Positions 3,142-57,608 of a stretch of DNA of 64,000 bases are shown in pieces (the first letter of the stretch is position 1; the number at the start of each line of letters is the position of its first letter). Made by a program: the position numbers and the translations under genes. The DNA is from Ophelia neglecta (lineage: Eukaryota), in assembly GCA_965285935.1 (NCBI GenBank), contig OZ260662.1, positions 25,234,001 to 25,298,000 of the forward strand, in the 5' to 3' direction. The notes beneath the pieces were generated by a model. The model was not told the DNA's origin. It saw only the letters and a program-made list of their open reading frames with translations, and ran no database searches.

Positions 3142-4217
3142 CAATGGTAATCACAAGTGTCAACTATGAGCCGTTGTGATGAACACATGTTCCTACATCA
3201 AAACCAAGCGTGGCCACTATTACCCTTCGAAGCAGAGGCTAATGCTTATCGCATAGCTTCTCCGCATCATGCTACAGGCGAAGAGAACGTAGCTGTGTAC
3301 TCTGCTACGAAGGGAAGGCCACTATAGGCACCAGTTGATGGAGTAGATTTTTAAAAAGCAATGGTCATGCATGGCTTGCCCCTACTAGCAGCAGAAAACG
3401 GACTGCTTCGGCTTACGCCTCTGCAGTCAGCTTTCCCCGTTATGCTCACTTCTTCGGGAATTAACTATAACGTAGAGCTTAACGTCACAGCGCTTCATTA
3501 AACATTAACATTGTTAAGCGTATAGTATTAGGAAATAGTGCCAGTCTAGTGAATCATTAAGTGAAGTGAAGGGATGCATTCACACAATTTAGGAATCACG
3601 CAGCACGGGGGTTATTGAAAAGCTGTTGAATGTTTTCAACGGGGATTCATTTCTCACCATGCATTATCCTTTCATCTACCCTTGTATTAGCTATTAGATG
3701 GAGGTCCGAGAGAAGGCATATTTTTACTTAATTTGTCTCCCCTTATGAGGAAGGGAGAAACTCCTTTGCCATTTTATTTGGCACTCAGATACTCCAATTG
3801 TGTGGGTTCTACAATTCTAAGTCTCATGCATATTGTCTATTAACAGTTTAATGTTCTTCTACCTGTTATAATTTCTTCTCTGTTTACATTAAATTCTGAG
3901 AATAACAATATATCTACTCGACGATTATCAAATCTTTATACAGTCAAACATGCAACGCATCCCAACTTCCAAGCAGCTCTGTCGTAAATATCAACCTTCT
4001 ACTAATTGATTATAATTGCTCGATACGCTTGTTTATGATCAAGTTGATAAAACAAGACACTATTATTGGATTAGTTAATAGAATAGACATGATAATCTTA
4101 ATCCAGCATGTAATTTATTTACCGAACATATGCACAATAGTTAAAAGAATCTTTTGGTACATATACTGTTTTCTTTTTTTGTAAACGCATTATATCCTGG
4201 GATGTACATTCATAAGT

Positions 4218-5195
4218 ACTCATTCATCGCGACCTTATTTGCGTAGCGATATACCTATTTGTTATGTGTCCCAGGGTTTGGGTATCGTTACTTGTTGCAA
4301 GTAGAATTATTCTACGCATGGAAAAGATCTTCAGAATTCACTGCAAGCCATCCTAAATTATTTACAGCTGTTACTTATTTCGGTTGAAAGGTAAGCCTAA
4401 CGTTTTTCCACCAATTGTGTTAATACCTATTTTACCATATGACGTATAGAAGACAACATAACGTGTGAAATCTTGGGTCTTGCACCGTGTAGTAACATTT
4501 GTAATTATCAGCACGAATGTAACCAATAACCCTCTCTGACCAATTGCAGTTCTGAAAGCCAATGTAGATGGCTAGCACAACAACCTAATAAGAGAATTCA
4601 CAAAGAACATAGTCATTTAGAATATTAATACACTGTCTCGATGCAGTTATCCTTTTTTAATATTAGGCAAGACATGCGACAGAATGAAAAGGCAAATCGT
4701 ATGCGCTCGGACTAATAAGCATTCATTTGCATACGGTGCACTTCATCCTGACATATAATTGACGTATTATATGACATAACTTTTTTTATATAATAAAATG
4801 CCGTAATAGACTAGAAGGCAACACCAGGGTATGCATAACCTCCTAAAACATCTTGAAAACTCATTGAAACATCTTGAAAATTACATATATCATTGCATTA
4901 ACATTAATTATGCAATTTATATACGTTCAGAAGTATACGTATAACGATTTTGGGAAAAAGGCCAGAAACATATTTATTCATGAGCGTCTTGTCCTTTGAG
5001 TGTTGTCGATCAAGCTCGTAAACCTTCGAGTGTGGGAGTTCTCGCTAGGTCTAATTCGTACCATGGAGTACCCCGTTGCCATTCCTAGTAGCCATCTCTG
5101 AAGGTAAATCGAAAAGGTCCCTAGGCTTGAATGTCGCCGACAACTGATTGTACTGACCGCTACCCGCTATTGCATAACAAGTACATTCGCCCCTT
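4218..5195 (+). repeat. Tandem segmental duplication, copy 1 (~1 kb, empty-site copy)
   Basis: Colinear high identity with 5305-6907, from ACTCATTCATCGCGACC to GTACATTCGCCC; explains near-identical ORF-track entries 4371..4562 and 5461..5649. Confidence 0.95.
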
Positions 5196-5304
5196 GCTGT
5201 TTCTAAATTTCATGTTGTAATGGCCAAACGCCTAGATGCACAAGCACAATTTATAACTTACTGTATGACTCAAAGTTCAATCATCTTGAGATAAGTAGAT
5301 CACA

Positions 5305-6907
5305 ACTCATTCATCGCGACCTTATTTGCGTAGTGGTAGACCTATTTGTTAAATGCCCCAGGGCTCGGGTATGGTTACTTGTTGCAAGTAGAATTTTTCT
5401 ACACACGGAAAAGATCTTCAGAATTCACTGCAAGCCATCCTAACTCATTTACAACTGTTATTATTTTGGTTGAAAGGTTAAGGCTAACGTTTTTCCACCA
5501 ATTGTGTAAATACCTATTTTACCATATGACGTATAGAAGACAACATAACGTGTGAAATCTTGGGTCTTGCACCGTGTAGTAACATTTGTAATTATCAGCA
5601 CGAATGTAACCAATAACCCTCTCTGACCAATTGCAGTTCTGAAAGCCAATGTAGATGGCTAGCACAACAACCACACCAACAGAAACATCCATAAAATTGA
5701 AATGGTTCAGAGGCGGGCGGCCAGATTCGTTACTGGCCGATACCATAACACAAGCAGTGTCTCAGACATGTTGGCTGGTCTCGAATGGCAGACACTCCAG
5801 TATCGGAGGAAAGCCGCGAGACTGGCCCTCATGTACAAGACTATTGGCGGTCTGGTTGCCCTGCCCTCTGGACCAACACACCTCCGCCCAAACCTGCGAC
5901 CCACAAGACACTCCAGTCCACACAATTTTATCCCATATTCAACTAACACCAACACCTTCAAATTCCCCTTCTACCCCCGTACAGTTGTGGATTGGAATCA
6001 GTTCCCTCAACCAGTCATTCTGGCTCCTTCCTTGGATGCCTTTAGGGTTGCTATGAGTTCAGCCCTTCCTCCAATTTAAATATTCAGTGATATGTTTTTA
6101 ATTTCACTATGTAAAATAAACACTTTTTTGCCAGTGCGTCAACATGTGTGCATGCCCATGACAAAATGCCCCAGTTGGGGCGTAGTCATTATTTGAAAGA
6201 AGGAGAACCTAATAAGAGAATTCACAGAGAACATAGTCATTTAGAACCTTAATACACTGTCTCGATGCAGTTATCCTGTTTTAATATTAGGCAAGACATG
6301 CGACAGAATGAAAAAGCAAATCGTATGTGGCGAACGAATAAGCATTCATTTGCAATCGGACTAAAATCGAAGGGCGGAAATGTCGGTGCACGTCACCCTG
6401 ACATATATATGATCATATGACATATGACCTTTTTTATATTATTGAATGCGTTGATAGACTAGAAGGCAACACCAGGGTATGCATAACCACCTAAAACATC
6501 TTGAAAACTCATTGAAACATCTTGAAAATTGAATATATCATTGCATTAACATAAGCTTCGCAATATATACCTTAAGAAGTACACCTAAAACGATGAGGGG
6601 TAAGGGCCAAAAACATTTTTTTTTATGAGCGTCTTGTCCTTTGAGTGTTGTTAATTAAGCTCGTAAACCTTCGAGTGTGGGAGTTCTCGCCAGGTCTCAT
6701 TCGTACCCTAGAGTAACCCGTTGCCATTCAGAGTAGCTATCTCTGAAGATAAATCGAAAAGGGTAAAAACACGCAAATTTCTGATCGGGGATAGCTTGTA
6801 TGTAAAATATTGCATTTAAGTATTGATGGTCCCCAGGCTTGAATGTCGGCGACAACTAATTGTACTGACCGCTACCCGCTATTGCATAACAGGTACATTC
6901 GCCCTTT
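5305..6907 (+). repeat. Tandem segmental duplication, copy 2 (carries a LINE insertion and an extra ~65 bp at ~6763-6827)
   Basis: Matches 4218-5195 on both sides of 5673-6209; ends ~255 bp before the oxidoreductase ATG. Confidence 0.95.
5673..6209 (+). mobile_element. 5'-truncated non-LTR retrotransposon (CR1/L2-group ORF2 C-terminus and 3' UTR)
   Basis: Encodes EMVQRRAARFVTGRYHNTSSVSDMLAGLEWQTLQYRRKAARLALMYK...FPFYPRTVVDWNQFP, typical post-RT region. GAA-rich tail; AACC on both sides (5669-5672, 6206-6209); absent from duplication copy 1. Confidence 0.9.
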
Positions 6908-7162
6908 TATTACTGCCTGGCCTAGATGTCAGGTTTTTTTGATGTTTCAAAATACTGCGCTGTTAATCGTGTGACTTTAATCGAAGGGACCTTTTATTCG
7001 TATATAACAGGTACAATCACAAAACAGGTAGAATGACAACAAAATATAAAGCATAATACAGGGTTCTCTCGGGGATGCAATCTGCCTGTGCGAATTGTAG
7101 GATAAGGAAGACCATTACAGTGAAGTCTTGCCTGGAAATTCCCAACGTTCTCTTTCAAAAAC

Positions 7163-10100
7163 ATGGATCTTAAGACGTATTCCAGCCTTGTTTTCTTTGT
7201 CAACGGAAAAAAGGTAAGTTTTCAGCATATTCTGTTTCCTAACTTGCAACAGGACGAATCCTGCTACAAGTAATACAATAAAAAATGATAAGACGCAAAG
7301 ATAAAAGAATGCACTTTTATTTATATAATATTAATGATATAAATGCATGATCGATACCACATTCTCCTTTTGCTGGATAAATTATATATCTGTAAGCGGC
7401 GCCATGTTTAAGCACTAAACGTATTTGTCAAACAAACCTTAACTCGGTTATGATGATATGATGTTACAACTACCGGCCAAACAAGCGCAATACATATTCA
7501 AAGGGCATATTAAAATGTTCAAGTTGCTTTAAGAGAGATATAATCGATGATGACAAATTCTAATTTACCACTGTAAGCAGCTTATGTTCAGTAGAAATGT
7601 TACGTATATTGATGTGCAATAAAGAATGTGATATTTAAGCATGAATATGGTTTGTAGAATAAAACAAATAATAATAATTGATATTAATGTTATTCCTTTA
7701 ATAAAACTATTAATCGTTAGATTTTCCTAGGGGCGCAACTACATGTAATTAGAAATAAACCGTGTCATCTGTTCTGCAGGTAACGGAGCTCAATCCCGAT
7801 CCCGGATGGACATTGCTATTTTACCTCAGAGAAATTTGTATCCTCAATATTGAAAAGTATCTATAATTGGGTTACCTTTGTTAACACTGTCGAACCAGTT
7901 CAACATGGACGTAAGCTTAATTTTATATTTAAGAATAATGTGAAAAGGTACAACCTATGCGGCGAGCACAATGATGCGTGCGTTTTTATCACACACACGT
8001 TATGTATATAACTTGCAAAGCTGCCGCTACGAAACAACTGAAACTAATGAAAGACTAAATAATAGAAAACTCCATTATATTTGACTGCCCACCTGCGCGG
8101 AATACACACTACAATTACTTGGCAAATCAGCGATTAAGTAGTATTCCTGTTTCTTACATATGTCCACAACTGATTTACAAGCTCTTACGCAGTGCAATTT
8201 CCTTTGGGACGCTTTATCAGACAGGCATTTTATTTTTCACTTATTTTGTTAAGATAATGGATAGAGAAAAACAGGTGTGTATACCCGGCAGACTAGGCAA
8301 GATGGTTTACACGGAATTGTGCATTAGATAAGACAGAAATCACTGGTAGTAGGGTTTTCGGGTGGGGGGGGGGGGACACCGAAAATACCCTGGTGCTCTC
8401 CGACGTCTACAACCATACGAACGCGGAAGTGTGCAATAGCGTGTATAAATATCGGACCGAATTCATCAGTAACCGTCTGATTAAGTCCCATAAATACCAA
8501 TCACCAAGTGTGTAAATGTAAGTATCTTGGAACGGAGAACATGAAAGGCTAATCTCGGGGAAATACCGATAAAAACCAGGGTGCTCTAAGACTTCCGGAA
8601 AGGGCTGAGAAAGTTACAGGTATGCTCTACACTTTATTTCCTTTACCACAAAAGTGCGTCTTACAGGAAGTAAAGATGGATGTGGCGAGGGCGGGTGTGG
8701 CGCATGCACCGTGATGCTTTCTGGAATCAACCGGATATCCGGCAAAATATGGTAGTGGAAAGCCAGAAATAAAGAAACTACGAAAAATTGCTCTGGAATA
8801 AATATAACACTATTGTAAACAATAATAATGGACACTAACCATAAGTTAATTTGTTCAGGCACAAGGCCGTGCCTTCGTGTCGTTTTCCAGTGTGTGCAGT
8901 CCATGGTTTGTCCGTGACTACCGTTGAAGGCGTTGGTTCAACAAGGACAAAAGTGCATGTTATTCAGGTTCCTACTCTCCTAGTATTTGAATGAACACAA
9001 CTTTAAAAATAAGAGCAATATATATTGTTAACCTGCACGAATTATGAAACTCTTTTTTGTTTTGTTTTTGCCCGAACTTTCCGATTCAAATCGCACATGC
9101 TCACGTTTTTGTGAAACGAACTCGATTACTTATGGAGTGTTCTGACACGAGAATTTCAAAATGTCAGGACGTGAGATTTACTGTTTTATGAGAAATATCA
9201 ATGGCAACTAACTTAATAATTTTTTTAAAGGAAAGCCTGGCATTGTCTCACGGTACTCAATGTGGATTTTGTACTCCTGGCATAGTGATGTCTATGTATG
9301 CGCTTCTCCGTAATACGCCGAAGCCTTCGCAATTGGAAATAGAACACGCTATCAGAGGTAGGCGGGCAAGTGTACAACCTTTCAAGGCGTTGTAGAATTT
9401 TTCTGAAGCTTAGTTCGGTTTACAGTGTATTTCAGGCAAGTGATTCACAAATACGCAACCACCAGTAAATCTCTTATACCCATGGTCATGTACATGCCTA
9501 TTAACCCAATTTGTCATTTGTTTAGGAAATATATGCAGATGTACAGGATATCGTCCTATACTAGATGGATTCAGAACATTCGCTGACGTATGAATTTTTC
9601 TTTTTTTTTATGAAAACAAACACTGCCAACTTGGTTTACTTCGTATATAAAATTGACTCAGGCAAAAATATCACCAACGCTCTTTGGCTTACATTTATTA
9701 CTGACATTTATACAGACAGAAGACTGCCCATTGGGAGAACAGTGCTGCCAGAACATTCACAAAACGAATATGGACAATTTGCCTGGCAAGGACCAAGTAA
9801 AATAGATGTTTTTCCATATATTACTCATCAAAATTATACTTCCTTGTACGTTTGTATTTTTGGTTTATCGGTATATCCATTAAACATGAATATGGTTTGA
9901 CTTATTCAACACATCATGCAGACAGCTGATTCTGGGGACGATATTGGCGAACATTCCAAGAAGTATGACTCATCCCAAGAGCCTATTTTTCCAAGTGAAT
10001 TGCAGGTAAAACAAATGAATTTATAAAGTGTAACCTCGAAAAGCCCAACGTGACAGAGTATTAGAATATTACGGTGTATTTTTGGGGACACATTTTCATG

Positions 10101-13100
10101 TGCATACACTATTATTAGCTTACAGATGTTTTTGACAGTCAGTGTTTAAAGTACGATTCAGAGCAACTGACTTGGTACAGGCCAGTTTCCCTTCAGCAGT
10201 TGTTATATTTAAAACATGCATATAAGGACGCATTCATTGTCGCGGGAAACACTTTTGGTAAGATGTAGTTATAATTCTAATAATATTACAATAAAATCGC
10301 CAAATTAATGACTATATGTTATTTTTAAGGGAATAAAGCGAATTGCAGAATAGGGTAATATTTACTGCATGACTGGGTCGAAACCTCAATGCTATTGTGG
10401 CACAGTTAGCCCAAAGACATGTATGCAAATGCAAATATGTACGAACATGTAACAATTGTTCACTTTGAATTTAATTATTTTATCTTATCGGGTAAAATGG
10501 CTATAACGATCATGGCAGGGTAAGAAATTTGGAAAAGGGGATTGATAAGTTATGAAGACTCCTTTCTTCTTCTGGAATCCAAGGATTTCGTCATTCCATT
10601 ATTTTTCAATACTACGCCCGACCTGCGTCAATAACACTGGTGTCCCCAGGCAATTTATTTGAGTAAATCATCCAACCTAATTTAGGTCATATGAGGCGCA
10701 GATTGCCAGTTAAGGACACAGTGCTAATATCTACTTCTGCCGTTCCTGAGCTGACAAAACATTCAGTGCATGTTGAGTACATTTCATTCGGCGCCGCAAT
10801 GTCGATGTCTGATGTAGAACGGATTCTTAATCATCACATCGATAATCTGCCCGAGGAAAAGACAAGATACTTTACTGCGCTAAAATCCCAACTTTACAAC
10901 TTTACAGGAGTACAAATAAAAAATATAGCAGTAAGTTAAGACCCGATAATCGATTAATGATGGGCATTAACAGTGCCTCGACTCTTCAGTAATTATTCAT
11001 ATTTGATATATTATCTTCTAAATGGAGTATATTTCTGAAGTAAGGCAGGTGAAATACTTAATCAACCTCACATAGTTGTTGGTGAAGAGTCTCACCTTTC
11101 TGCACTAAGACTGCTTTGTATTTTCCTTTCAAAGACCATAGGAGGTAGTGTAATGACATTGGTTTCAAATGATATCAATACAACCTTGGCATGCATGCCA
11201 GCATCTACTACATTCCTCGTCCCAGGTTTGCAGTACATTTTTAAAGACTAATTACATAATATACTTTCCTTTCTCTGTCAATGTTCACGTCACAAAGATT
11301 ATATTCAGAAAGTTTGCAAAAATGAAACTATGATCAGAAGCTTAAGCATACTTACATATGAGATATACTATAATATTAAATCATAATGTCAGCGTCATTT
11401 TTAAAACCGAAATTTAATAGGAAAAGAAGAACCATCAAGGTTTGTTCAGTATGAAGTGGAAGATTTCTTTAATGGAAAATCAGAAAATAAAACAGACGGA
11501 AACATTCTATTGAATGTCAACGTACCGAAGTCAAGCAGGGTAAGCGAAATATAAACTATGAAATTTAATAATGTAAGTGAAAAGACAATAAAAACAAACT
11601 TGACCTGACACAACATGTTGCGCACATCATCAATCATGTCTTTAAAGGTTGATTCTTCAGCTATGCGGCGATGTACTTTCTTTTTATCTTAGATGGATTA
11701 CATCTCAAGTTATCAAGATTTGGATAAAAACGTTTGCTCTACATTTAGAGTTTGTTTGGACAAAGAACAAAAATTTGTTCATAAATTGGTAGCAACTATT
11801 GGAGATCGGAGAAATGACATAATATGCTTGGAGATACCGCGTCATATTACTGAAAGGTAAATTTGTCTCCAGGCCCTCTCGAGCAATCCACATGGACTCT
11901 TCTTTTCTCCGCTTTCTCATGTCTTAACCACACTGTAATTCCTCCGCCTCTTTATACTTGGCTTTTATTCTAAATTCATGTGTATAAATGTGCTTTGTTT
12001 GACTCAATGGACCCCGACAGGACTTATACTCCATTCCCGGATTTTAAATGCGCTTCGTTTTCTTGAACATCTCAGAACGGTATATGCATTACTCTTTGTT
12101 TTCTAACAGCGCAGAATCTGCACGGCTTGCTGAATTAATTACAGAAAAAGTTGCTGAGAAAACTGACCCCATGGTCCATTCTTTGATCCGCGGGTACTAC
12201 ATCAAGTTTTCAACTGAACTAAATAATTATATTGAGACCGCAGGTGTAGAAAAGTTTTCTCGTGGAAATGAGCATCAGCCTTCTTGTGCCAAAAGGTACG
12301 GTGGTGTACAAATGTATGAACACATGCCATCGAAGGAAAAGTCCATAGAATCAATTGGCAGGTTTTTGCCACATGAATCTGGTATACAACACGCCTGTGG
12401 AGAAGCTGTTTACGTTGATGATATACCTCGTACCTCTGGTGAGTTATTGAACGTTTAACTGACTTTACGAGTCTCTCTCATAATTTAAACTTAGTATGCT
12501 TCAGGGAGATGAAATTCATTTGCCCCACTGTTCAGTAATGTATCACATGGCTTAATATGGCGTAATCAATGTCTTTTAAATTACTTATATTTTCGTACGT
12601 ACCAGGAACAACGTTGGCATGCAGCTGAATAAAATCACTTTAAAAGTCTAATTTACTCATCTTTTTGCTGGGTGCGTTTGAATTTGAATAAACTTATAGA
12701 GGAGCTCCAGATGGCAATGTGTCTTAGCACCAAAGCGCATGCTCGCATCATAAGGATGGATACGTCGGTCGCCCTTGGAATGCCAGGAGTTGTGGATGTG
12801 ATCTCACATAAAGATGTCCCTGCAAAAAATAAATGTGGATTTGGTGGCGACGAGTTAATATTTGCAGTGGATAAAGTATGAATTTTACTACATTGACAGT
12901 TCAAATAAAGCTAAGCGCACAACGGCTAAACACAACGGTTGAACGCATAAAAATTGTTCAATGTGCTAGGGTGATGCCACGGAATCACCGCAATGTACTA
13001 AATACATCATTTTCAGGTTACTTGTTATGGGCAAGTCGTCGCTGCTGTGGTTGCCAACACCAAAGACAAAGCCATGCAAGCAGCCTGTTCTGTAATCATA

Positions 13101-16100
13101 GAATATGAAGACACGGAACCAACCATTGTTACCATTGAGGTTCGCAGGATTTACATTTATTGGAATTAAAAGACACGTGATATTTTATGGCGACATGCAA
13201 TATATTTCCTCTGTGCTTTGCATATTCTTTATTTTGGGAATTCGTGCCTACTAATTAATATCAACCTATCGATATCTAGGGATATAATTACAAGGTAAGG
13301 TGTTATAAGAGTCCAACTCACCCAGGAAAAACTGCACGCGGTTCAGTAAACAACAGCCCAAACTCTTTTTGTATTTAACCGGGACAAACAAGGGAATAAC
13401 TATAGGAAAAACAGACGTGGCACTTTTTTTCTGTTTTCGATAATGGGATCATTTTTCAAAGGCGCAGTCATTCTGAATCCTGCCACATTCGTGGTTTATT
13501 TTGGAAAATGGTTCTAACTCAAATTTAGAAAAGAAAGATTTTTTAATTAAATTATAATTAAATTATGATTGTGGTAAAATGATCCTTTTTTCTAAACGAA
13601 AAAAAGTCATTTGAAAACGTGGTCCTTGTGTTTAAATCAGAGACCAATGCTTACAAACTCTGCTGAATAAAACGGACATTTGTATTATAAACTACTCCTT
13701 GCAACCTTGTGAAATCAAATCAGGACTGAATGCCCGGAAGAGTAAGGAGAGTAAGGAAAGAGTAAGGAAAGTCAATATTTAGTCGATGACTCTTTCCCTC
13801 CTGTCAAATGGATAATTAAGTTACCATTACTTTACCACATAGGCAGTAAAACAGTGGCTTTGAGTGACCTATTACGAAAAATTAGTCTGGTCTATTATAA
13901 ACTTTTCTAATGCATAGTTCAACTATCCTGCGTTGACTACTGTCTAGATCTTTTTGGACTAGTCTCCTGAAAAACTAGTGAGTACGTCCCATTCCAAGTC
14001 AGCTTTGTCTGCCAGGCACTCAGTGCTCTCTTCAGCATGAGTTAGTTCCGTGTTGCACTTGTCCAACCAAATGTTAAATGGCATTTATAAAGAGTTGTTC
14101 ATCGAGCTCTGTTTAATTGATGTATAATGCAATCTGATACCCCCGAATAAGGCATATTCAACAACAGTTGAACTAATCTAATAGTTCTCGACCAATAACC
14201 GCTGTTGAGCGAAAACATAATGATTACTGAATGAAACAATTACACTAGTACACTTATACAACGGTGATGTATGGATGATGATAATTATGTATTTACAAGG
14301 ATGCCATTTGTAAGGAGTCTTTTTATGAAGACCAGCCACACCTGCAACATGGAGATATTGCCGAGGGTTTTTCAGCTAGTGACGAGATTTTGGAGGGACA
14401 AGTCTCGGTTGGTGGACAAGAACATTTCTATATGGAAACGAACGGCTGTATCATTATTCCTAAAAAAGAACGCGAAGAGTTTGAGGTGTGGGTGTCAAGC
14501 CAGGGATTAGCTTATATCCAGGTATCTTTGTTTTTAGTATCATAAGAACAGCGTTCATCACTTCGAGATCATTAAACGCACCTTATCAGATCTTATGTCT
14601 TCAGAATCCCACTCATTTAGGTATTTTGTCAGAATTCATATAACTGATTGTATCATTTTCATGCCGTTTTAATATTGGTTGCTGTCTATTTTTCAGTCAA
14701 ATATTTCAGAGGCCCTCGGAATACCCATGAACAGGATAGTCGTTAAAGCTAAACGCCTGGGTAAACTGTTATTGTTTTTTCCTTAAGAAAATATGGTATA
14801 TATCAAATTGCAACTCGTACTAGATGAAATTTCTATGTCAATGCTGTGGCACAAATTAATATTGATTGCTTAATGACAGGTGGTGGCTTCGGAGGAAAGG
14901 AATTTGATCCGTCTAAAACTTGTTTAGCCGCTGTAGTGGCTGCACACAAGTACATTGATCACATTTTCTGTTTTTTTTTCCATTAAAACATTTTCCGTTC
15001 CAAAGTCTATCATGTAATGTTTATTTACTTTACGGTGCTCAACGACTTGCAATGTATTGTTCTTAAATTTAAATTAAAACGTACCTAAATGCTAATGACA
15101 GGTTAATGAAAAGATCTTTCATGACGAATGATTTAGTTATATCTGTCTTTTTTACAACCACCAGACTCAATCGACCAGTAAGATGTGTGCTTAGCCGAGA
15201 GGAGGACATGCTGATAACCGGTGCAAGGCATCCTATGTTAGCCAACTACAAAGTTGGTTTCAAAAGGTCTGGCCAAATTTCAGCTCTAGACCTGAACATC
15301 TATTGCAATGGAGGAAGCACACGTGGTTTGTCCCCTGGGGTCAGCATGCATGCCTTACCAGTTTGCTTTTGCTTCGCGAGTGTTTATATTATTTGTCTAC
15401 AAATATGATACTTCCACTAAAATGATTTACAGGTATTGATGCATACTATTCTGGCAACCAGTGGTGCATATCATATCCAACATGCCACAGTCCGTGGAAG
15501 GATTTGTAAAACCAATATTACTTCGCCTACTGCTTGCCGAGGTTTCGGCGCACCAGAGGGAACATTTATGTGTGAAACGATAATTACTCACATAGCTGAA
15601 CAACTAAGTGTTTCACAGATCATGGTAAGAGGGAAAATGGTTCCGTTTTTAGTATGTGTTTCCTGAATATATTGCTATATTTATATGCATTCATATCCAG
15701 GGATGTTTAAAATATTTTCTTTATTAGATTCGAGAACTCAATTTGATTAACGAAGATGAGAGAACAATATACAACCAACCTGCTGTTCTCGGCCAACAAC
15801 TAGCCCGTTGTTGGAATGAAGTGAAGAGACAAAGCAGCTATCTTCAAAAGAAAGATGAGATGGACATGTTTAACAGGCAGGCTATTTCAAAATTAGAATT
15901 GACTAAGTACTCAGTAAACATTTAATGAACGACCGAATAATTTGAAATAAAAGGAGTGGCATTCTTTGTTGTAATTCATAATTGTGCATAACGAATATTC
16001 ACTTGTTTGTATTCAACGCAACAGAACTAACAAATTGACTAAACGGGGATTATCCATTGTTCCTATATTGACTGGGACAGGAATTAAACCAGAGTATCCT

Positions 16101-19100
16101 AACCAGGTGAATAATTTATCATCCGATCTAATACGAATAATTACTTTATGAATCAGTACTGAACTAATACATATTCCAATATAATATGCTGGACTGCAAG
16201 CGGTTGTGAGCAAAGCATTGCTATAGAAGTGTTATTCTATTATAGATATGCAGCTTGTAAACAAATGGCCAAACATAATTACATTATAAACAATGAGTAC
16301 TTTTTTATAAACGCTTAGTACAATATGATAATATGTCATATACTAGGGCGGAGCTTTGATGCAGGTGTATCAAGATGGAACAGTGTTACTGTCTCATGGG
16401 GGAATCGAGATGGGTCAGGGAATTAACACTCTCATGGTTCAGGTATGAAGCTAAAAAATAAACAACTTTATTTGCCACCAAGAGTGAACAAGAAAACATA
16501 CACTATTATATTAGGCTCTTAACATATTTGAAACATTAACTAATTGCGGGATATTCCTATAATCTTTCAAATTAGTATATCGTGTCTTAGGTAGCCTCCC
16601 ACTTTCTAGAAATACCTACAGGACAAATCTTTACTATTGAAGCGAGCACGGACAAAGTGCCCAATTCTACGAACACAGCTGCCAGCCACACAGCCGATAT
16701 TATTGGATTTGCGGTGAAGGTAAAACTCCTAAAACAATACCTGAAATAGTTTAGAGGTGTTCTTAAGATAGTTTGTTAGCGGCACTCATGCTCTAGACGT
16801 GTAGCCATATACGTGTTAATATTTTTTATTTGTATGTTTTTATAAACGCTATACATTTATGGAGAGCTGAGGGCAATACTGTCCTATCTGCAATGCCAAC
16901 GCTACAGCAGATAGAACATTGCGTTCATCACTGGATATATCTATTTGCAAAATCCAATATCTATGAAAGTTGTAATGAAGTAGTATTTTGTTGAAAAAGG
17001 ATTAAAAAAAATTACAATTCTACGCACTATCAGCACACTGATAACTTATATTATACCGCAGAATGCTTGTGAGATATTAAAAGAAAGACTGGCGCCTTTT
17101 AAAGAAAGACTTCCAAATGGTTCGTTCAAGGATTGGGTAAGCAATCTTACGAATGCAATGAAAATACTTTAAAATTAGATCAGCTGAATACTTTATTATG
17201 TATTTTTCAACTATTCTTTTGTTCCTTAATTGTTTTTATCCTTTCTTTACATATTTCAGGTGATTGCTGCTTACATGGAAAGAGTTTGTCTTTCTGTAGC
17301 GGGTTTCGCCAAGTATGTGATTAATTGGATACTTTACAACAAAATCTGTTCAAACAGGGAAAACATTATATATTTTCAGTGGTCAATAATCTCATTTCAA
17401 TGTACATTGAAAATCGAAAAAAGTGGCAAATCATCAGATTGTGTATATAGACTGTTACATGCTTTTGAATTATTATCAGATTTGGCACATGTGATTTGGA
17501 CTTCGGGTCACTACAAGAGCCCAAGTCCTTTGAGTACCTCACATATGGAGCAGCGTGTTCATATGTAGAAATAGACTGTCTGACTGGAGAACACAAGGTA
17601 AATATCAATTTGTTGCATATGGGCTTGTTGCTACTAGATCTAGATGATTTCTCACCGCATAAATGGAATATTCTGGATTATTTATTTTTGGCCGCTGTGT
17701 ATCCTATCCCGTTCTTTATGAACTACGATTTAGTGATATGGTTTTATTTCGGCAACTTGTGTTAAAACAATATCTTAACTACCTAAAAAGCACTCCTTCG
17801 TCACTTTAAAATACCTTCCAGTATTGACAATTTATTTCTTTTTCTTTAAGCGGCGTCATCTTTGTCACACTTTTAGTGTCTATGTTCGTGAATTAATATA
17901 AGCGTATAATGTACAGCACTGTGTACCATTATTTGATCAGTCTATAATACCTTTTCCTTATTATTTTGTGCAACAGATTCTCCAAACTGATATCGTGATG
18001 GATGTCGGAAAAAGCATCAATCCAGGAATTGCTATTGGGCAGATAGAAGGAGCATTTGTACAAGTTAGAATTATGAGAACTGTTTTAATCGTTGTATAAG
18101 CTAAAAGACCCAGACTGGCTGTCACGTTAACATATCTTTGGATATGTCGTATATTTTAATCAATTTTGATATATTCAGGCAGTTCCACTTTTGTATCGTC
18201 CCACTTTTGTATCGTCCCACTTAGAGTTGGATCTATCTTCTGATATAGGGCTGGGACTGTGTTTTTTTACTCCGTCAATGCAGATAAGCGTATAAGACGA
18301 TCATAAATACGTTTATTAGCTTTCATGTTTGAATTAGGCAATATAAACATCTACTTTAAATAGGGTCTCGGATTGTACGTGTTGGAGGAATTGCCTTATA
18401 CCAGCGATGGCAAACAATTGTATATTGGCCCTCAAACCTACAAAGTACCTAGGGTTCATCATATTCCAAAACAACTTAATGTGACGCTTCTTAAGGACTC
18501 GTACAACCCGCTCGGAATATGTTCCTCTAAGGTAATTACGTGAAGGAATATATACCAATTAGGACAACGAATTAAAGATCATTACTTTGTATTTATTGTT
18601 TTTAAGGGCTTTTGTATTTGATTTGCGGATACCTGTCGATATATTTCATCAACATGCTGCAGGCCATAGGAGAACCTCCCTTTTTGTCGGCACTGTCCGT
18701 TTTCTTTGCACTAAGAGATGCAGTGATGGCGGCGCGCCAGGAAAGTGGCATTCGTAATAGTTTAGTACTTAACAGCCCACTGACCATGAACAAAATACGG
18801 ATTGCCTGTCGTAACAAAAAGTTAACCGTGGAGGTAACTAATATCTCAATGAGTTTATAAGATATGCTCCGAATGTGCTAATCTAGTTCCGTCAAGAGAG
18901 CTCTGCTAATTCCACATCTTCTCCTACCATACGTCATCGGCAAGAGCTACTTGTAGTAATTATTGTACGAATAAAGTGTAATCCAACTTTTTGGGGAGAT
19001 AAACGAAGATAGAATATAAAAAAAAACATAATATTACATTTACCATCATACACGCGATCTCTCTGGTACTTTGCTTTTACTCTTTCTTGTAGGAAAAGAA

Positions 19101-19149
19101 GAACGGTGATGACAAATTGTTACAACATAATTATCTGATAAAGCATTAG
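7163..19149 (+). CDS. XDH: Xanthine dehydrogenase/aldehyde oxidase-family molybdo-flavoenzyme (2x[2Fe-2S], FAD, Moco domains), 32 coding exons, ~1320 aa; divergent XDH-like paralog
   Basis: Exons: 7163-7213, 7780-7837, 8655-8751, 8859-8967, 9231-9357, 9526-9587, 9716-9796, 9922-10005, 10119-10257, 10686-10930, 11135-11225, 11421-11539, 11693-11856, 12110-12438, 12700-12875, 13017-13139, 14300-14521, 14697-14760, 14880-14949, 15165-15339, 15433-15624, 15728-15876, 16025-16106, 16347-16442, 16591-16719, 17062-17136, 17260-17312, 17480-17597, 17977-18063, 18364-18531, 18663-18833, 19093-19149 (3963 nt, phases compatible, no internal stop). Motifs: [95 protein letters not shown]. The last small exon is less certain (alternative stop at 18858-18860). 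The symbol denotes the family, not proven orthology. Confidence 0.95.
7838..8654 (+). other. U12-type (minor spliceosome) GT-AG intron 2 of the XDH-like gene
   Basis: 5' site GTATCCTC (U12 consensus GTATCCTT); branch-site-like TTCCTTTAC at 8638-8646; no polypyrimidine tract before AAG. Position matches the known U12 intron 2 of animal XDH/AOX genes. Confidence 0.8.
18185..18222. repeat. 16-bp tandem repeat (CCACTTTTGTATCGTC x2.4), intronic
   Basis: Directly visible in intron 29 of the XDH-like gene. Confidence 0.9.
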
Positions 19150-31499: not shown

Positions 31500-32586
31500 T
31501 TTGACTTGGGTATTTGAAACGAAAGGATAACTATGCAATAGATACACCATTTAAGCCGACATCCTCTTACCAAATAGGATTTATACAATACTCTTGTACT
31601 GCCTCACTTAAATTATTGCATTGTTGCCTGGGGTTTGGAGGGAAATAGAATTAGACAATTGCAGAAAAGAGCTATCAGAACCATAACATTAAGTAAATAT
31701 ATAGCACATACCGAACCTCTCTTTAAAGAGCTTAAAGTACTAAAAATTGAAGACTTGTACTATCTACAACTACTTAAATTTTATTATAAATTATCACATA
31801 GTTACCTGCCTACGTATTTTGCCATTTTTCATTTATATCTTGCTTCTGATGTACACAGTCATGACACTAGAAATAAAAACAAATATTACAGCTCTCTAGT
31901 AAGCAATGAATTTTCAAAGAAATGTGTAAGATATAGACTGGTGTCGGTTTTGAACGATGTTCCAGATGCGGTTAAAAGCAAACTTTCCACTCACAGTCAA
32001 CATGGTTTTTCAAACTAGGTTAAAATGTTTCTTATCGATAAATACGAAATAGTATGTAACATCGAAATTTGTTATGTTTGTAGAACTGTTGCCATATAAA
32101 CCAGACAGGCATCCTCTGTAAATTGCTAGAATGTTCTGTAGCATTTTCCACTTCCTTTTGTATTTGAGGTTGGATTATTTATGGACTATCGTACAGTTTT
32201 TGTTTTATATTCTTGTGTGTCCTTTTGTTCTGTCTTTTATTTCTTTTTCTTTGTTTTATGTACAATTTACTCTCATGTTTGAGGATATAACCAATTGCCA
32301 TTGCTTTAATGTGTAACTTTGATATCAATTTATCCACTATTATTTGGTTTAACTAATTTCTTTTATTTGACTAACCCATTTCATTTGTACAAATACAATA
32401 TCCACTAGGGTGGCTCTCATGTCAGTAATGACTTAATGGGGGTCTCCCTGGCCTTATCCATAACTATATTTACATGTACATATATTATTATGAATGTTCG
32501 TCAATTTTTGTAACATTTGTAAATACTCTATTCATTTATGTAATCATTTAAAGGTCAAATAAATTGTTCTGATTCTGATTCTGATT
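31500..32586 (+). mobile_element. 5'-truncated L2-group LINE with (TTCTGA)n tail, nested in the minus-strand LINE
   Basis: LYNTLVLPHLNYCIVAWG...LQKRAIRTITLSKYIAHTEPLFKELKVLKIEDLY; AATAAA at 32558 then TTCTGA x3. 5' boundary approximate. Confidence 0.88.
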
Positions 32587-36189: not shown

Positions 36190-39100
36190 TTTAATTAGAG
36201 GACCCGGACGAGGACGAACACTTTCCTGCAACGCAAACGGAATTGGATATATTAGAATGCATTAAAAACAAATATGGTAAACTGCCCGGCGAGCTATTCG
36301 CGCAGACTTTAGCAAAAGAATTTACAACTGTTGATTTACGACACATCAGATCGGGATTGTATGACCTGGGCGTCACAAATATGATTTTTCCCAAGGATGG
36401 GCTTATATCAAGGAAAAACAACAAAAAGCAATCTAAATAGGAAATTGGCCGAAGATATCCACACACTTTACCAGTTTCATGAATGTGAAACGACTATTGA
36501 CATGAGCAATGTAGTGTCAACCAAATTCAGGCAACAACTGAAAGAGTCTATATCTGAGCTAGATACCAGCATGAACAACAGTGATTTTCAAACTAATGCT
36601 CAAGGAGTGTCAACGCCCGGCATTCCATCAACACCGGCGAGACACGTGATTCACTGCCCTGAAAACCTGTCAACACGGGGGGAACCTCAAGTAAGGGAAA
36701 AAGCGAATCACGACTCAACTTTGCTGGAGGACTTGCTTACCTGAAAAGCGAGTTAACGCCTGCCATTCAACGTCTGAATGCTCTGGAAGCGACTGACTAT
36801 CGGTCCCTGATAAATGACTTAGAGCAGCTCAAAAAGGAACTACTTAAGGAAAAGTCCATGATATCTCACCTCCAAAAATGTATTGACAACAAAGACGTAG
36901 AAATAATGAACCTAAAACAGAAAATAGCCACAATGGAAAAAAGCTATGGAACAAATTCACAAGATGACCTCGAAAGGTAGCTCAAAGGCAGACCTGAATA
37001 CGCTATAAGGGTGAATTTGGAAACCAAATCTGAGCTATTAGAGTGCATTAGCTACCAAGAAGCACACATGAAAAGTTTATCGTGATTTGTGTATGGGCGG
37101 GATTTCTTCCCAAAGCTACCATGGTACCCGCCTCCCATGAGACCCGATATCATATGACCGCCCGCTCCTGGTCGAAGATCGGGTGAACCTCTCGGGAGAG
37201 AGGCGTTTAATGTGCAACCGCAACCACACCAACCGGCCGAAAGGCCAAACCAACAAAAACAGCAGGAAGTAAGACTGCAATTCCGAGTTGGAACAACCGG
37301 AAGACACCGCCACACCACGGAGACCCGTCATTGGTCAAATTGTTCCTAGGCAACTTGACTGATAAAGCAAATCCAACAGTCATCAGCGATCATATACGAA
37401 GGAAAAACAGTCGGAGAAGTAAGAGTTATAAAAAGTAAGTGTTCGAGTGGCTATGCGGCCATTATTGAGGCTCTACCGGAAGCAGCTGTTGAGGAGATGA
37501 TAAGAGGTGACTTTTGGCCTGGTAGTGCTTATTGCAGACTTTGGATTGAGCGCGGAACAGCAAGGAACCACCAACGACGTAATCACAATGCGAGCGATCA
37601 ATGGACTTACGATGGCTTTAAACAATAAGCTAATTTTGGCAGCCTATAACTGCCAGGGTCTCCTCCGCAGCATGACTTATACGAACCACCTACTGAATGT
37701 TTTAAAACCGGACATTCTGTTTCTCTCAGAACACTGGCTACGCGAAAGTGTGAGCGAAGTTCTGAATCAAATCCACAATAACTACGAAAGCAAGGGAAAA
37801 TTTGACCGGCGTAACGAAGTTTTAGACCCCAGCCGCCCAGGTAAACGATATATGGGAGGAACAGCCTTTTTGTGGAGAAACTCACAGCCCATGTCAGAGA
37901 CATTCCTCACGACCATGACATAATAAAAATAATGGAACTAACCTATCCTACTTAGTCCTAATTGGAGTATATCTCCCCTCCTCGGACCAAGGCGTCGAAC
38001 CCTTCTAGGGTGTTCTCAACGAAGTAGAGGCTCTCTATGATTACTACTCCTCAAACCATGAGGTAATCTTAATGGGCGACTTCAACTCGAACATTAGCGG
38101 TGACCGCTTTACCTGTCATATAGATTCATATATATTGCGGAAAAGACGAGAGGCCGCTGACTACCTGTTATGGTCACGGGATCTAGTTTCGTGGATGGTA
38201 CAGTGCGGATATATTGGTCCACCATACACAAGGGAACCCTGTCAGGATGGAACCCGTACACTTATCGATCACATTATCAGTCGGCGACGCTTATCAGACA
38301 CTATTACAGAATCTTGTATTATTGATGATCACCATCTCAACGTGTCCGATCACCTGCCAGTTTGTGTGAGCCTGGCCGTGAAACCCTTGGTGAAGTCCAC
38401 CAAGAAACCCAAAAATATCACGAAGTCCCTCAACTGGCGGAAAGCTGTGCGTTCTCAACTCACGCTGGCGTATGAGAACGAACTGACTCAGACCCTGAAC
38501 AGCTTACCCGAGTCCGTCATGGAGAGCCATCGACCGTGAGTACTCCGCCATGGTCGACTGCCTCCAGAGTTGTGCGGTAAAACACATCCTAGTGAAGTAA
38601 TTTTTTCCACATATAAAACCATACTGGAAAAAGCAGGACCTAAATCATCTCCATGACAACATGAAAAACCTGCGGCTGACGTGGCTACAGCAAGGTCGGC
38701 CCAGGGGTCGTCAGCACAATACAAGTCATTCTGTGACTACAAAGAAGCCAAAAGAAGTTTTCGAGCCGTACAGAGACGACTTACTGAGTATCGCTGCCAT
38801 GGAAGCCGACTTTTATCACGAGGTGGACGAAGCGGCCGAGCATGATCAGGAACAACTATGGAGACTTATTAACTGCCGGCGCAACAAAAACAAGCTTAAA
38901 GGCCACGAACTCTGTATAGAAAATCGTATTGTGAGAGACCCCAACGCCGTAAGGATGGTATGGGCGGAACACTTTAGTAAGCTGTTTGACTTTCTTATAG
39001 ATCCCGAATTCGACGTTCAGCAGAGGGCAGACGTTGAACAAAAATTGGCGGAAATTAAGGTCGGGGCAGCTATCGAGGAGGACCCGATAATGGATACTCC

Positions 39101-41281
39101 CATAACCGGCTCATAGGTTCAAATTGCGATTGACAGAACAAAATATAGTAAAAGTGGCGGAGCAGATTCAATTGTATATGAACATGAAAAATTCGGCCGC
39201 CGCTTTCTACTGGCAAAATTGGCAAAGCTTTACAACGCTATGTACGATATTTGTCAAGTGTCAAAGGACATGAAGCAGGGAGTTATTATACCGCTTCATA
39301 AAGATGCAAATAAACGATCGCAAAAATTACGGGGGGATTTCCCTACTTCCCGTCTTTTATGAGGTGTGGGAACGCATAATCCTTCGACGATGGGACAACT
39401 GGTTGCTTACTCCAGTAGGCCGCAGCCTGAACTTCCCCGATGAAGTCCAAAACGGCTTTAGAAAAGGGAGGAGTTCCCTTATGTCTTCATTCATCGTCCA
39501 AGAATCCATTCACTGGGCTAACGAGCGGGGCTCGACAATTCATTTGTGCCTTTTGGACAGCGCCACGGCTTTTGACTGCGTCTGGTCCAACGGCATGTTG
39601 GTGAAACTCCACGACATTGGGATTTGTTGACGACTGTGGCTGTTACTCCTCAAAGCCTACACAGACATGTGGGCAGTAGTGTTGTACGATGGCGCATTTT
39701 CAGAACAATTCGCAATACGCCAGTCCGTTAGGCAGGGTACTGTTCAAGGACCCCAGTTATACAGTGCGTTTATTGACGAGCTACCAAAATCAATAAAGGA
39801 AACTGGAAATGGCGTCTTTATTAACGGCTTGTTCTGCGGCGCAATCCTACAGACGGACGACACTGCGTTGATCTCCCTTACTCCTCGCGCTCTACAGAGG
39901 ATGCTGGATATGTGTTATGACAATAGTAAACTCTGGCGATTCAAATTCAATGCTTCCAAAACTAAAATACTAGTGTTCGAACCGAAGCCTCGTCGATCAG
40001 ACCACCCTCATAACCTAGTCTGGAAAATGGGAGATTCCCTTATCCGACCTGTAAGGGAGCCGACGCACGTCGGGATTAAGATGTGTTCGCGTACGTCCGA
40101 CGACCGCGCAAAAACTGCCGCTAACGCCCCAAGCTCTCAAGTGGCTGGTCTGGTGGGAATTGGTAACCACCCGGAAGGTCTCACTCCATTAACCTCTATA
40201 AAGTTATACCGATCCGTCGTCCTTCCCAAGGCTCTCTACGGCAGTGAACTCTGGTCGTGTGTTTCAAGGAAAGAATCGGTCATTCTCGAAACTGCTCGTT
40301 GCCACTCAGCTAAGGTAACTTCACTTGTGGGCATGAGTAGTATAGCAGTCGAGGTTGACAGGAGAGGCCTTCAGTTTCTGGCCACCATATTACGACTACC
40401 ACCGCTTGCTCTGCCTTCGCGTCTGCTCAGGCTACGTATACATCATTTTGCACTCAAGGTTACTGGAAGTCACAGAGGTTACTGCTCTGAACTGCTGCCA
40501 CTTCTAGACAGAATAAACCTAATGGACAAGCTGGTTGTTTATCTTGAGCAAGGGGTTTGGTGCGGTCGTTCTACGTGGAATATCGCGGTTAGAGAGCATC
40601 TAGCTGACTATGTCCAGGCAGAGACACTTTGCACAATGCTCGGTAACCCGGAATTACATAGCCTTCCGTGCTTTACATCCGTTTATCCTCGAGCCGTGTG
40701 AGATTTGGAAGGTAGCAAAAACGTCTTGTGGACTCCAACCACACTTTGCTTTCCTCGTGAAACTGGCCACAAGGAATACCGTTTTTGTCCGCAGTTGCCC
40801 TTACTGTGTCTCCTCTTACCGCGATTGCGCTCTCCATCTCATATGTGAATGCCAGCATTTCTCTACAAGGAGAGATGTCTACTGGGAGGAACTCATCGAC
40901 AAATTCCATCCATTGATCTCAACTAAACTTTTTATGATGAACGATGAGGATTTTATTAGTGAGTTTTTCAGTGGTATTTTCTGAAATTGACAGGCATGAA
41001 TTCTTTAAAGTTGGTGCAAAGTGTTGGTATGCACTTAGGAACTATGTTACGAATGACATTTTATACAATTACAGCAAAACCTAGATGTGTATAGTATTTA
41101 TGACAAGAGCTCTCCCAATACATTGGTCAAATACCATAGAAACTCAGTCGAGTATAGTTGCCATGCGTTAACTCACTTCTATATCTACTATATATATTCG
41201 TTTATAAACACTATTGTTTGATATGTTTTGATATATGTACTTTCCGTTAATGTGGAGGAATAAAACATAACAACAACAACA
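36190..41281 (+). mobile_element. Near full-length inactivated non-LTR retrotransposon (RTE-X-like): ORF1 plus APE endonuclease-RT ORF2, (CAA)n tail
   Basis: ORF1 remnants ~36200-37628 (coiled-coil-like segment, FWPGSAYCRLW). ORF2 from ATG 37612: AYNCQGL, FLSEHWL, MGDFN, LIDHI, SDHLPV (APE); NYGGISLL, QNGFRKG, LDSATAFD, VRQG, LQTDD (RT); CPYC...HLICEC. Many stops and frameshifts. AATAAA at 41259 then CAA repeats. Clade assignment is by motif recall only. Confidence 0.93.
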
Positions 41282-56416: not shown

Positions 56417-57608
56417 TTGGCGGCTACTATGACCTCTAGTACTGGCAATTTTGCCAAATGTAAACTATATCTTGTTGAGCAGGCTCAGCGTGCTATGTTC
56501 TCTGTACTGAGCAGGTGTAATGCTTTAAAATTACCTATTAAAACTCGCCTAGATTTATTTGACACCATGATATTGCCTATACTCACCTATGGCTGTGAAG
56601 TTTGGGGTCACACTAATATAACTGTAATGCTTTAAAATTACCTATTAAAACTCGCCTAGATTTATTTGACACCATGATATTGCCTATACTCACCTATGGC
56701 TGTGAAGTTTGGGGTCACACTAATATAACTGTGATAGAAAGGTTACACCTTAAATATTGTAAATATGTTCTGGGCCTTAGGGCTTCCACCTGCTCTGCTA
56801 TGGTATATGGAGAAAGTGGTCGGTACCCACTTGAAGTATCTATTAAAACTAGAATGGCTGGTTTCTGGGTAAAGCTCGCCACTGGCAAGCAAAGTAAACT
56901 AAGCAGCACACTCTATAGATACGTATATCAATTATTTAATCTCGACATGTACTCGCAACCATGGTTGCTTTTTGTTAAGTCTATCTTTGAAAGCTGTGGC
57001 TGTCCTAATCTGTTTATCTCACAAGCGACATACGTCAATCCAATTTGGCTCAAACTGCACCTAAACAGGAAATTGATGGATCTTTTTATACAAGGTTGGC
57101 ATAGTGATATCTCGTCAAGGTCATATTGTTTATCATACTCTGCCTACAAGACAATGTTTAAATTTGAAAGCTATCTGGACGAATTGCCTCATAATTTGGC
57201 CATTCAATTATGTAGATTCCGCTCAAGCAATCATTGCTTGCCCATCGAGACTGGAAGGTACAAACGCACCCCTCGTCTCGAACGGCTCTGTACAGTATGT
57301 AATAGAAACTGCTTGTGCGACGAATACCATGCGTTGCTCGAATGTAATAATGATGTAATTGTGAAGCTCAGGAGGCAATACCTGCCCCCTCACTTTTGTG
57401 AACGGCCAAGTATGTTTAAATTTATTACATTAATGACTGATGCTAAATTGTCACGCAAGCTCTCAATATATATCAGAAAAATTCTTTCATTTCATTGCCT
57501 GTAAATATATTGCACATGTTAATTGTACTGATTAAGCTTGTATGTACCTATGTATGTTTCTCTGTGCTCCATGCCTCTTTGAGGCCAAGAGCTAATAAAC
57601 CAAAACCT
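56417..57608 (+). mobile_element. 5'-truncated RTE-X-like LINE (post-RT region and Cys/His motif) with an internal 107-bp tandem duplication
   Basis: LDLFDTMILPILTYGCEVWG...ERLHLKYCKYVLGL...VYGESGRYPL...FRSSNHCLPIETGRY...RLCTVC...DEYHALLEC; AATAAA at 57594; 56516-56622 is identical to 56623-56729. Confidence 0.92.

Follow-up and report, generated by a model that had tools for sequence, protein, structure and literature searches.

An XDH-derived gene with a remodelled flavin domain in Ophelia neglecta, probably encoding an AOX-like hydroxylase

The 64,000-nucleotide stretch of the Ophelia neglecta genome analysed here (contig OZ260662.1, positions 25,234,001 to 25,298,000 of the forward strand, hereafter the window; C2:25234001-25298000 of a 762-Mb animal genome) carries a predicted molybdo-enzyme gene that derives from xanthine dehydrogenase (XDH). 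We consider it fairly probable that this XDH duplicate now encodes an aldehyde oxidase (AOX)-like hydroxylase, which would act on non-purine substrates independently of nicotinamide adenine dinucleotide (NAD) and would have evolved convergently. A preliminary description, made from the letters alone, had presented the gene by its molybdenum active site, where Glu802 is kept and Arg880 is replaced (residue numbering is that of bovine xanthine oxidoreductase, XOR). We find this pair ordinary enough; the most distinctive feature of the gene is its remodelled domain for flavin adenine dinucleotide (FAD) and NAD, which that description overlooked.

Exon boundaries were set by eye and then checked in a script. 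The resulting model has the following parts, for which invariant positions were defined across 114 database homologues.
7163..18833, forward strand: predicted XDH-derived molybdo-enzyme gene, 31 modelled coding exons, 1302 codons, no stop in frame
7163..9587, forward strand: two [2Fe-2S] domains (exons 1-6), 8/8 cysteine ligands, 47/54 invariant positions kept
10119..11539, forward strand: FAD-binding N-terminal subdomain (exons 9-12), 22/46 invariant positions kept
11693..12230, forward strand: remodelled FAD C-terminal subdomain, 6/26 invariant positions kept
12347..18833, forward strand: molybdenum-cofactor domain, 186/210 invariant positions kept
19093..19149, forward strand: putative and probable last coding exon, 18 amino acids and TAG, the sequence showing a pyrimidine tract and an AG

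All introns of the 31-exon model are GT-AG, with the sole exception of a GC donor at 15877, and 24 of the 30 share place and phase with introns of this genome's canonical XDH. By reading of the sequence, this donor follows exon 22, and use of a GT located 30 bases further downstream would leave the frame intact as well. As an alternative 3' end, exon 31 could continue as far as a stop codon near 18860. Against a molybdenum-domain profile of XDH, the model scores 961 bits, so the likeness of its motifs is not due to chance. The motifs quoted in the preliminary description are all present on the forward strand and joined in one stop-free frame: SSQ (14495-14503), GGFGGKE (14882-14902, the preceding first Gly of the motif being split by an intron), LSPG and VLMHTIL (on the two sides of the exon junction 15339/15433), and AIGEPP (18663-18680), although SSQ and AIGEPP fall outside the interval 14880-16106 in which it had placed them. 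Judged by sequence, the protein would belong to the xanthine oxidase family, as two [2Fe-2S] domains with eight cysteines are present together with the molybdenum-domain ligands and Glu1261.

The genome contains at least 12 XDH-family genes, as found by searches with exons 21 and 30 and in the fetched regions. A separate canonical XDH, which the preliminary description had suggested looking for, lies at C1:117152476-117182368 (1311 amino acids), with Glu802, Arg880, Phe1009-Thr1010, and the NAD motifs intact. The window gene forms a trio with two sister copies, both on the minus strand: P2 (C2:25317148-25306180), about 8 kb past the window and with one in-frame TAA, and P3 (C2:24086569-24069575), with an open frame. 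Synonymous divergence (dS) within the trio is 1.1-1.6, near saturation, and the ratio of nonsynonymous to synonymous divergence (dN/dS) is 0.15-0.18 overall and 0.10-0.13 in the molybdenum domain (pairwise, Nei-Gojobori). The high dS and low overall dN/dS therefore indicate that the three copies are old and selected.

In the molybdenum domain, the residues of the substrate pocket are as follows.
14501..14506, forward strand: Gln767 kept, Asn768 replaced by Gly
14900..14902, forward strand: Glu802 kept, likewise in both sister copies
15442..15444, forward strand: His at the Arg880 position (Tyr in the sisters)
15454-15456, forward strand: His884 replaced by Ala
15529..15549, forward strand: TACRGFG, with Phe911 replaced by Cys and Arg912 and Phe914 kept
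16074..16106, forward strand: substrate-channel loop, 11 residues, with Phe1013 replaced by Tyr and Leu1014 by Pro
16083-16085, forward strand: Phe1009 replaced by Ile
16086-16088, forward strand: Thr1010 replaced by Lys
18672..18674, forward strand: catalytic base Glu1261

The domain also retains Phe798, Met1038-Gly-Gln1040, Ala1079, Ser1080, Gln1194, and Gly1260, and its 186 conserved invariant positions compare with 187/210 in fish AOX6. The preliminary description was right that the catalytic residues (Gln767, Glu802, Arg912, Phe914, Glu1261) are intact, that TAFRG reads TACRG, and that the Phe1009/Thr1010 loop is replaced, and in implying that xanthine is an unlikely substrate. P2 and P3 combine Glu802 and Tyr880 with Met-Ile and Leu-Leu, respectively, at 1009/1010; the His880 codon (CAT) differs from the Tyr880 codon of the sisters (TAT) by one base. 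The residue at the His884 position is Ala, Ser, and Ala across the trio, and the presence of two basic pocket residues (His880, Lys1010) is specific to the window copy among the three. All three share His-Thr at 1081-1082 (16687-16692), beside the molybdenum-cofactor loop, where XDHs have small residues.

The assignment of His to the Arg880 position, as originally proposed, withstood each check. The codon encodes the fourth residue of its exon, and phmmer aligns residue 10 of this exon with bovine 886 and residue 2 with mouse AOX3 883; His4 therefore corresponds to bovine Arg880 and to mouse AOX3 Tyr885. Pairwise and multiple alignments to mole XDH confirm this register, and no Arg is aligned there. 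Four acceptors were found in 15345-15459, of which the modelled AG is the only in-frame one, and none of the five in-frame donors tested changes the His codon. A splice artefact as the source of His880 was rejected, as Arg is restored by no acceptor or donor tested. An assembly error is also unlikely, because contigs of three DNA runs span both exon 23 and the His codon, with no difference listed at either (all runs come from one sample, which may itself be the source of the assembly).

The FAD/NAD domain has diverged far more than the rest of the protein. Identity to the genome's own XDH is 62% in the Fe/S and 50% in the molybdenum part, versus 32% and 16% in the N- and C-terminal halves of the FAD domain; the corresponding values between this XDH and bee XDH are 68%, 59%, 51%, and 44%. 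Fish AOX6 keeps 51 invariant positions in the Fe/S domains and 32 and 19 in the two FAD halves, and the genome's XDH keeps 45/46 in the N half. Pfam CO_deh_flav_C matches both XDH exons examined (2/2), with no match in exon 13 of the three copies nor in exon 14 of the window gene. The XDH profile gives -4.7 bits for the C-terminal subdomain, versus 126 bits for fish AOX6, and profile alignment still detects remote homology (hhalign E 4e-5). Exon 10 retains a Pfam FAD_binding_5 match.

Gly260-Asn261-Thr262, Ala346, Gly349, Gly350, Thr354, and Asp360, which we take to be FAD contacts, are present in the N subdomain; Glu263, Trp336, Asn351, Tyr393, and Arg394 have been lost from it. The loop 423-433, including Asp429, is mostly deleted (about six residues short, at about 11714-11734), and the PGGM loop, which presumably takes part in NAD binding, is deleted (about six residues short, at about 12150). 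Phe337, an FAD contact (PMC3509653), is also retained. The loss of Tyr393 and of most of loop 423-433 is common to all three copies. Erosion of this domain extends beyond the trio, because four other paralogues (partial models) show a similar state and two unnamed database proteins score low there. P3 has further losses in the FAD site (Gly260Ala, Gly350Asp, Asn351Arg, and Asp360Ala; C2:24082178-24081331, minus strand), which puts it first among the candidates for a flavin-less protein. Structure prediction covered exon 10 alone and was useless (predicted local distance difference test score of 49), and searches of PDB with exons 11 and 23 gave no match.

Nine genes of the family are readable at both 802 and 880, and Arg880 is found in the canonical XDH only. 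Paralogue C1b (C1:89.10-89.12 Mb) combines Glu802 with Ala880 and has Ala in place of Phe914. We also observed an XDH-derived group of four genes (C5:47.45 Mb; C8:64.39, 73.64, and 73.66 Mb) that combine Asp802 and Lys880 with a changed FAD motif; in partial models, three of the four also lack Gln767. Near P3 lie at least three distantly related genes of aldehyde-oxidase-like type that belong to another subfamily (C2:24.10, 24.32, and 24.35 Mb). The paralogues C2d and C2e, which are too fragmentary, and a match with stops at C2:34.55 Mb were left out of trees and counts.

The frequency of such pockets was assessed in two sets of homologues, which share one protein and were picked by similarity, not randomly: set 1 comprises 150 profile hits, 44 of which cover both 802 and 880, and set 2 comprises 120 homologues of a gastropod XDH-like protein. 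In set 1 (n=44), 32 proteins are Glu/Arg at 802/880, 10 are Glu/other, and 2 are other/other; in set 2 (n=120), 105 are Glu/Arg, 9 are Glu/other, and 6 lack Glu. Glu802 without Arg880 is therefore recurrent, and the preliminary description overstated its distinctiveness, as the combination occurs in 10/44 and 9/120 homologues as well as in paralogue C1b. It is found in gastropods (Glu/Thr in Plakobranchus, Lymnaea, Physella, and Biomphalaria; Glu/Lys in Littorina and Babylonia), a nemertean (Lineus, Glu/Lys), a mussel (Mytilus, Glu/Gln), a hemichordate (Saccoglossus, Glu/Tyr), and a chytrid (Gonapodya, Glu/Gln). His at 880 is seen once in set 1 (1/44) and never in set 2 (0/120). A non-aromatic residue at 1009 is rarer, this position being Phe or Tyr in 119 of the 120 proteins of set 2.

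The canonical XDH of the genome scores best against Capitella and clusters with annelid XDHs in trees. In a mixture-model tree, the trio falls with the other divergent paralogues of this genome amid lophotrochozoan XDHs, and fish AOX6 joins vertebrate XDH. A union of the trio and AOX6 is rejected by the approximately unbiased (AU) test (p=0.0008; LG+G4, 18 rows, one AOX sequence). The trees suggest that vertebrate AOX and the trio are separate in origin, the trio not descending from the vertebrate XDH duplication, and that the AOX-like change probably evolved convergently, likely within annelids. The group may have an older bilaterian origin, because the long-branch Saccoglossus Glu/Tyr protein also clusters with it.

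Searches for an orthologue used single short exons throughout and are thus weak evidence of absence. The search with exon 21 found a close relative in none of 3 candidates, and an exon-21 profile run against 1.84 billion representatives found nothing close (the top match being a tandem-duplicated canonical XDH fragment). With an exon-30 profile, 2 hits were obtained among 383 candidates (best 52%), with no orthologue; a metagenome scan gave 0/184, and an Atlas search returned a generic FAD_binding_5 match only. A literature search on annelid, polychaete, or mollusc AOX/XDH paralogues, with subscription papers and supplements outside its reach, found no relevant paper. Repeated XDH-to-AOX conversion, reportedly described by Rodriguez-Trelles in 2003, is already known; what is unusual here is the loss of Phe1009 and the deeply remodelled flavin domain.

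By analogy with XOR and AOX, the window protein would bind the molybdenum cofactor and use Glu1261, which is present, as the base that activates Mo-OH to attack the carbon of an aldehyde or N-heterocycle. With Arg880, Phe1009, Thr1010, and His884 gone, xanthine C8 is predicted not to be activated, and the predicted substrates are aldehydes or N-heterocycles, with polar contacts from Glu802, His880, and Lys1010. Electrons would pass from molybdenum to Fe/S I and Fe/S II, all eight cysteines of which are seen. FAD is probably bound and retained, because the GNT loop, Phe337, Gly349/350, Thr354, and Asp360 remain. NAD+ is probably unused, because the protein lacks Tyr393 and loop 423-433, including Asp429, which would leave O2 as acceptor and H2O2/superoxide as product.

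The scheme is backed by the open frame of 31 exons, the canonical XDH elsewhere in the genome, the low dN/dS within the trio, the molybdenum domain (conserved nearly as well as in fish AOX6), and the tree position of the trio, and it draws support from studies of related enzymes. Human XOR carrying Arg881Met or Glu803Val lost purine activity and showed aldehyde oxidase activity (PMC3509653), and a fungal XDH mutated at the Arg lost xanthine activity and kept hypoxanthine activity (PMC4334109); a fungal Arg mutant without xanthine activity is also described in PMC5746545. Binding of NAD has been linked to Tyr393, and the dehydrogenase state to Asp429/loop A (PMC3509653, PMC8615798). Human AOX1, whose loop I is divergent, cannot use NAD+ (PMC5531472). 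Finally, some of the substitutions equal AOX states (PMC3864932): Tyr880 of the sisters corresponds to Tyr885 of mouse AOX3, and Ile1009 of the window gene to the Ile of mouse AOX1.

Several observations weigh against an NAD-independent, AOX-like hydroxylase of convergent origin. The AOX lysine (Lys889 of mouse AOX3) is absent in the trio, and Glu802, said in PMC5746545 never to be conserved in AOXs, is kept in the window gene. In one LG+G4 tree (18 rows), fish AOX6 clustered with the trio group (support 94), and the AU test rests on one AOX sequence and this simpler model, with long branches involved. The FAD domain is eroded beyond the level of a flavin-binding AOX in both halves, and FAD binding is not assured, because P3 has lost Gly260, Gly350, and Asp360. 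The TAA of P2, known from the assembly alone, lies in the exon matching window exon 25 (C2:25308035-25307907, minus strand) of a gene otherwise open and conserved. In addition, each of three DNA runs of one sample yields one contig in which 6 bases take the place of positions 7114-7196, an 83-base segment that contains the predicted start codon (7163); this is a possible null allele. The TAA and this allele would both be signs that the genes are dispensable.

To our knowledge, all characterised eukaryotic members of the family bind FAD. The invisibility of the C-terminal FAD subdomain to Pfam and to the XDH profile, the low identity of both FAD halves to the genome's XDH, and the substitutions Gly350Asp, Asn351Arg, and Asp360Ala in P3 would nevertheless fit a flavin-less Mo/Fe-S hydroxylase, or a reductase (of nitrite or N-oxides, for example), whose former FAD domain serves as a scaffold or docking surface for an electron partner. 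The aldehyde oxidoreductase of Desulfovibrio gigas, which lacks FAD and uses flavodoxin, is a precedent (PMC10223205). We regard this as possible but unlikely: the window gene and P2 keep GNT, Phe337, Ala346, Gly349/350, Thr354, and Asp360 despite near-saturated synonymous divergence, the domain is near full length, dN/dS in its N half is 0.16-0.35 among the trio, exon 10 is still recognised as FAD_binding_5, and no partner was identified.

Retention of Glu802 and Phe914 could instead point to a purine or pterin hydroxylase of shifted regiospecificity (converting hypoxanthine to xanthine only, for example), in which Lys1010 and His880, the basic pair of the window copy, stand in for the charge of Arg880; the hypoxanthine activity of fungal Arg880 mutants (PMC4334109) agrees with this. 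However, Phe1009, Thr1010, His884, and Asn768 are all replaced, the first at a position that is almost invariably aromatic in set 2, and the basic pair is not conserved, as the sisters have Tyr880 and Ile or Leu at 1010, so we find this proposal doubtful. Least probable of all, to our mind, is that the window gene is a redundant copy in early decay and functionless at present. The nonsense codon of P2, the possible start-loss allele, and the GC donor are what one would expect of it, but the frame is open over 31 exons, dN/dS on the window-gene branch is about 0.14 (calculated by hand from pairwise values), and, within 14200-16500, all five listed indels are intronic and 7 of the 11 listed coding variants are silent. 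We favour the AOX-like, NAD-independent hydroxylase.

Elsewhere in the window, at least three membrane-transporter genes that resemble one another, and which we take to be of the SLC43/LAT3 family, form a tandem array at 26738-54038 on the minus strand. Pieces of endonuclease/reverse transcriptase of the long interspersed nuclear element type were recognised by eye at 5663-6076, 31578-32018, 37504-40984, and 56617-57504. Upstream of the gene, repeated translations reveal two or three diverged copies of a unit roughly 1.1 kb long (4141-6733).

The window gene apparently represents another independent route from XDH to an AOX-like enzyme, on which AOX-type Tyr/His880 and Ile1009 were reached with Glu802 kept. 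The His, Tyr, and Tyr880 variants, together with a canonical XDH in the same genome, form a natural set bearing on the role of Glu802 without Arg880 and on whether deletion of the NAD loops suffices for a permanent oxidase. Were the flavin-less alternative true, animals would have their own equivalent of the bacterial aldehyde oxidoreductases that lack flavin: its molybdenum and Fe/S centres would be strongly selected, its former FAD domain would dock an external electron partner, and its Glu802/His880/Lys1010 pocket would accommodate a metabolite specific to the lineage. The loss of FAD would then extend the range of architectures known among animal molybdoenzymes.

Compared with known systems, the protein is, as the preliminary description held, not a canonical XDH, and it is not an AOX of the vertebrate type either. 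It shares domain order, the eight Fe/S cysteines, molybdenum-cofactor contacts, Glu802, Phe914, and Glu1261 with XDH/XOR (bovine, rat, human, and the genome's own), the best database XDHs being 42-44% identical to it. It differs from them by Arg880His, Phe1009Ile, Thr1010Lys, His884Ala, and Phe911Cys, by the loss of Tyr393, Trp336, Glu263, and Asn351, and by deletion of loop 423-433, which includes Asp429, and of the PGGM loop. Vertebrate AOXs (human AOX1, mouse AOX1/AOX3, fish AOX6) likewise derive from XDH, have Arg880 replaced, and have lost NAD elements. In contrast to them, the window gene keeps Glu802 and has no Lys at 884 (a feature that is not absolute, as fish AOX6 also lacks it), and its FAD C-subdomain is far more eroded, by deletion as well as substitution. 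HxnS, the nicotinate hydroxylase of Aspergillus nidulans, also arose by duplication of XDH, has a new substrate, and is altered in its 1009-1013 loop, but it keeps Arg880, Phe1009, and all FAD/NAD residues (PMC5746545). The D. gigas enzyme, the model for a flavin-less protein, has molybdenum, two [2Fe-2S] clusters, and an external flavodoxin (PMC10223205); it is bacterial, uses the molybdopterin cytosine dinucleotide (MCD) cofactor, and lacks the FAD domain wholly, whereas the window gene has this domain. Finally, the invertebrate and protist 'XDH-like' paralogues, known by database names alone, resemble the window gene in their 802/880 pair, but the nine such proteins of set 2 retain Tyr393 and an aromatic residue at 1009 (9/9) and loop 423-433 (8/9), none of which is found in the trio.

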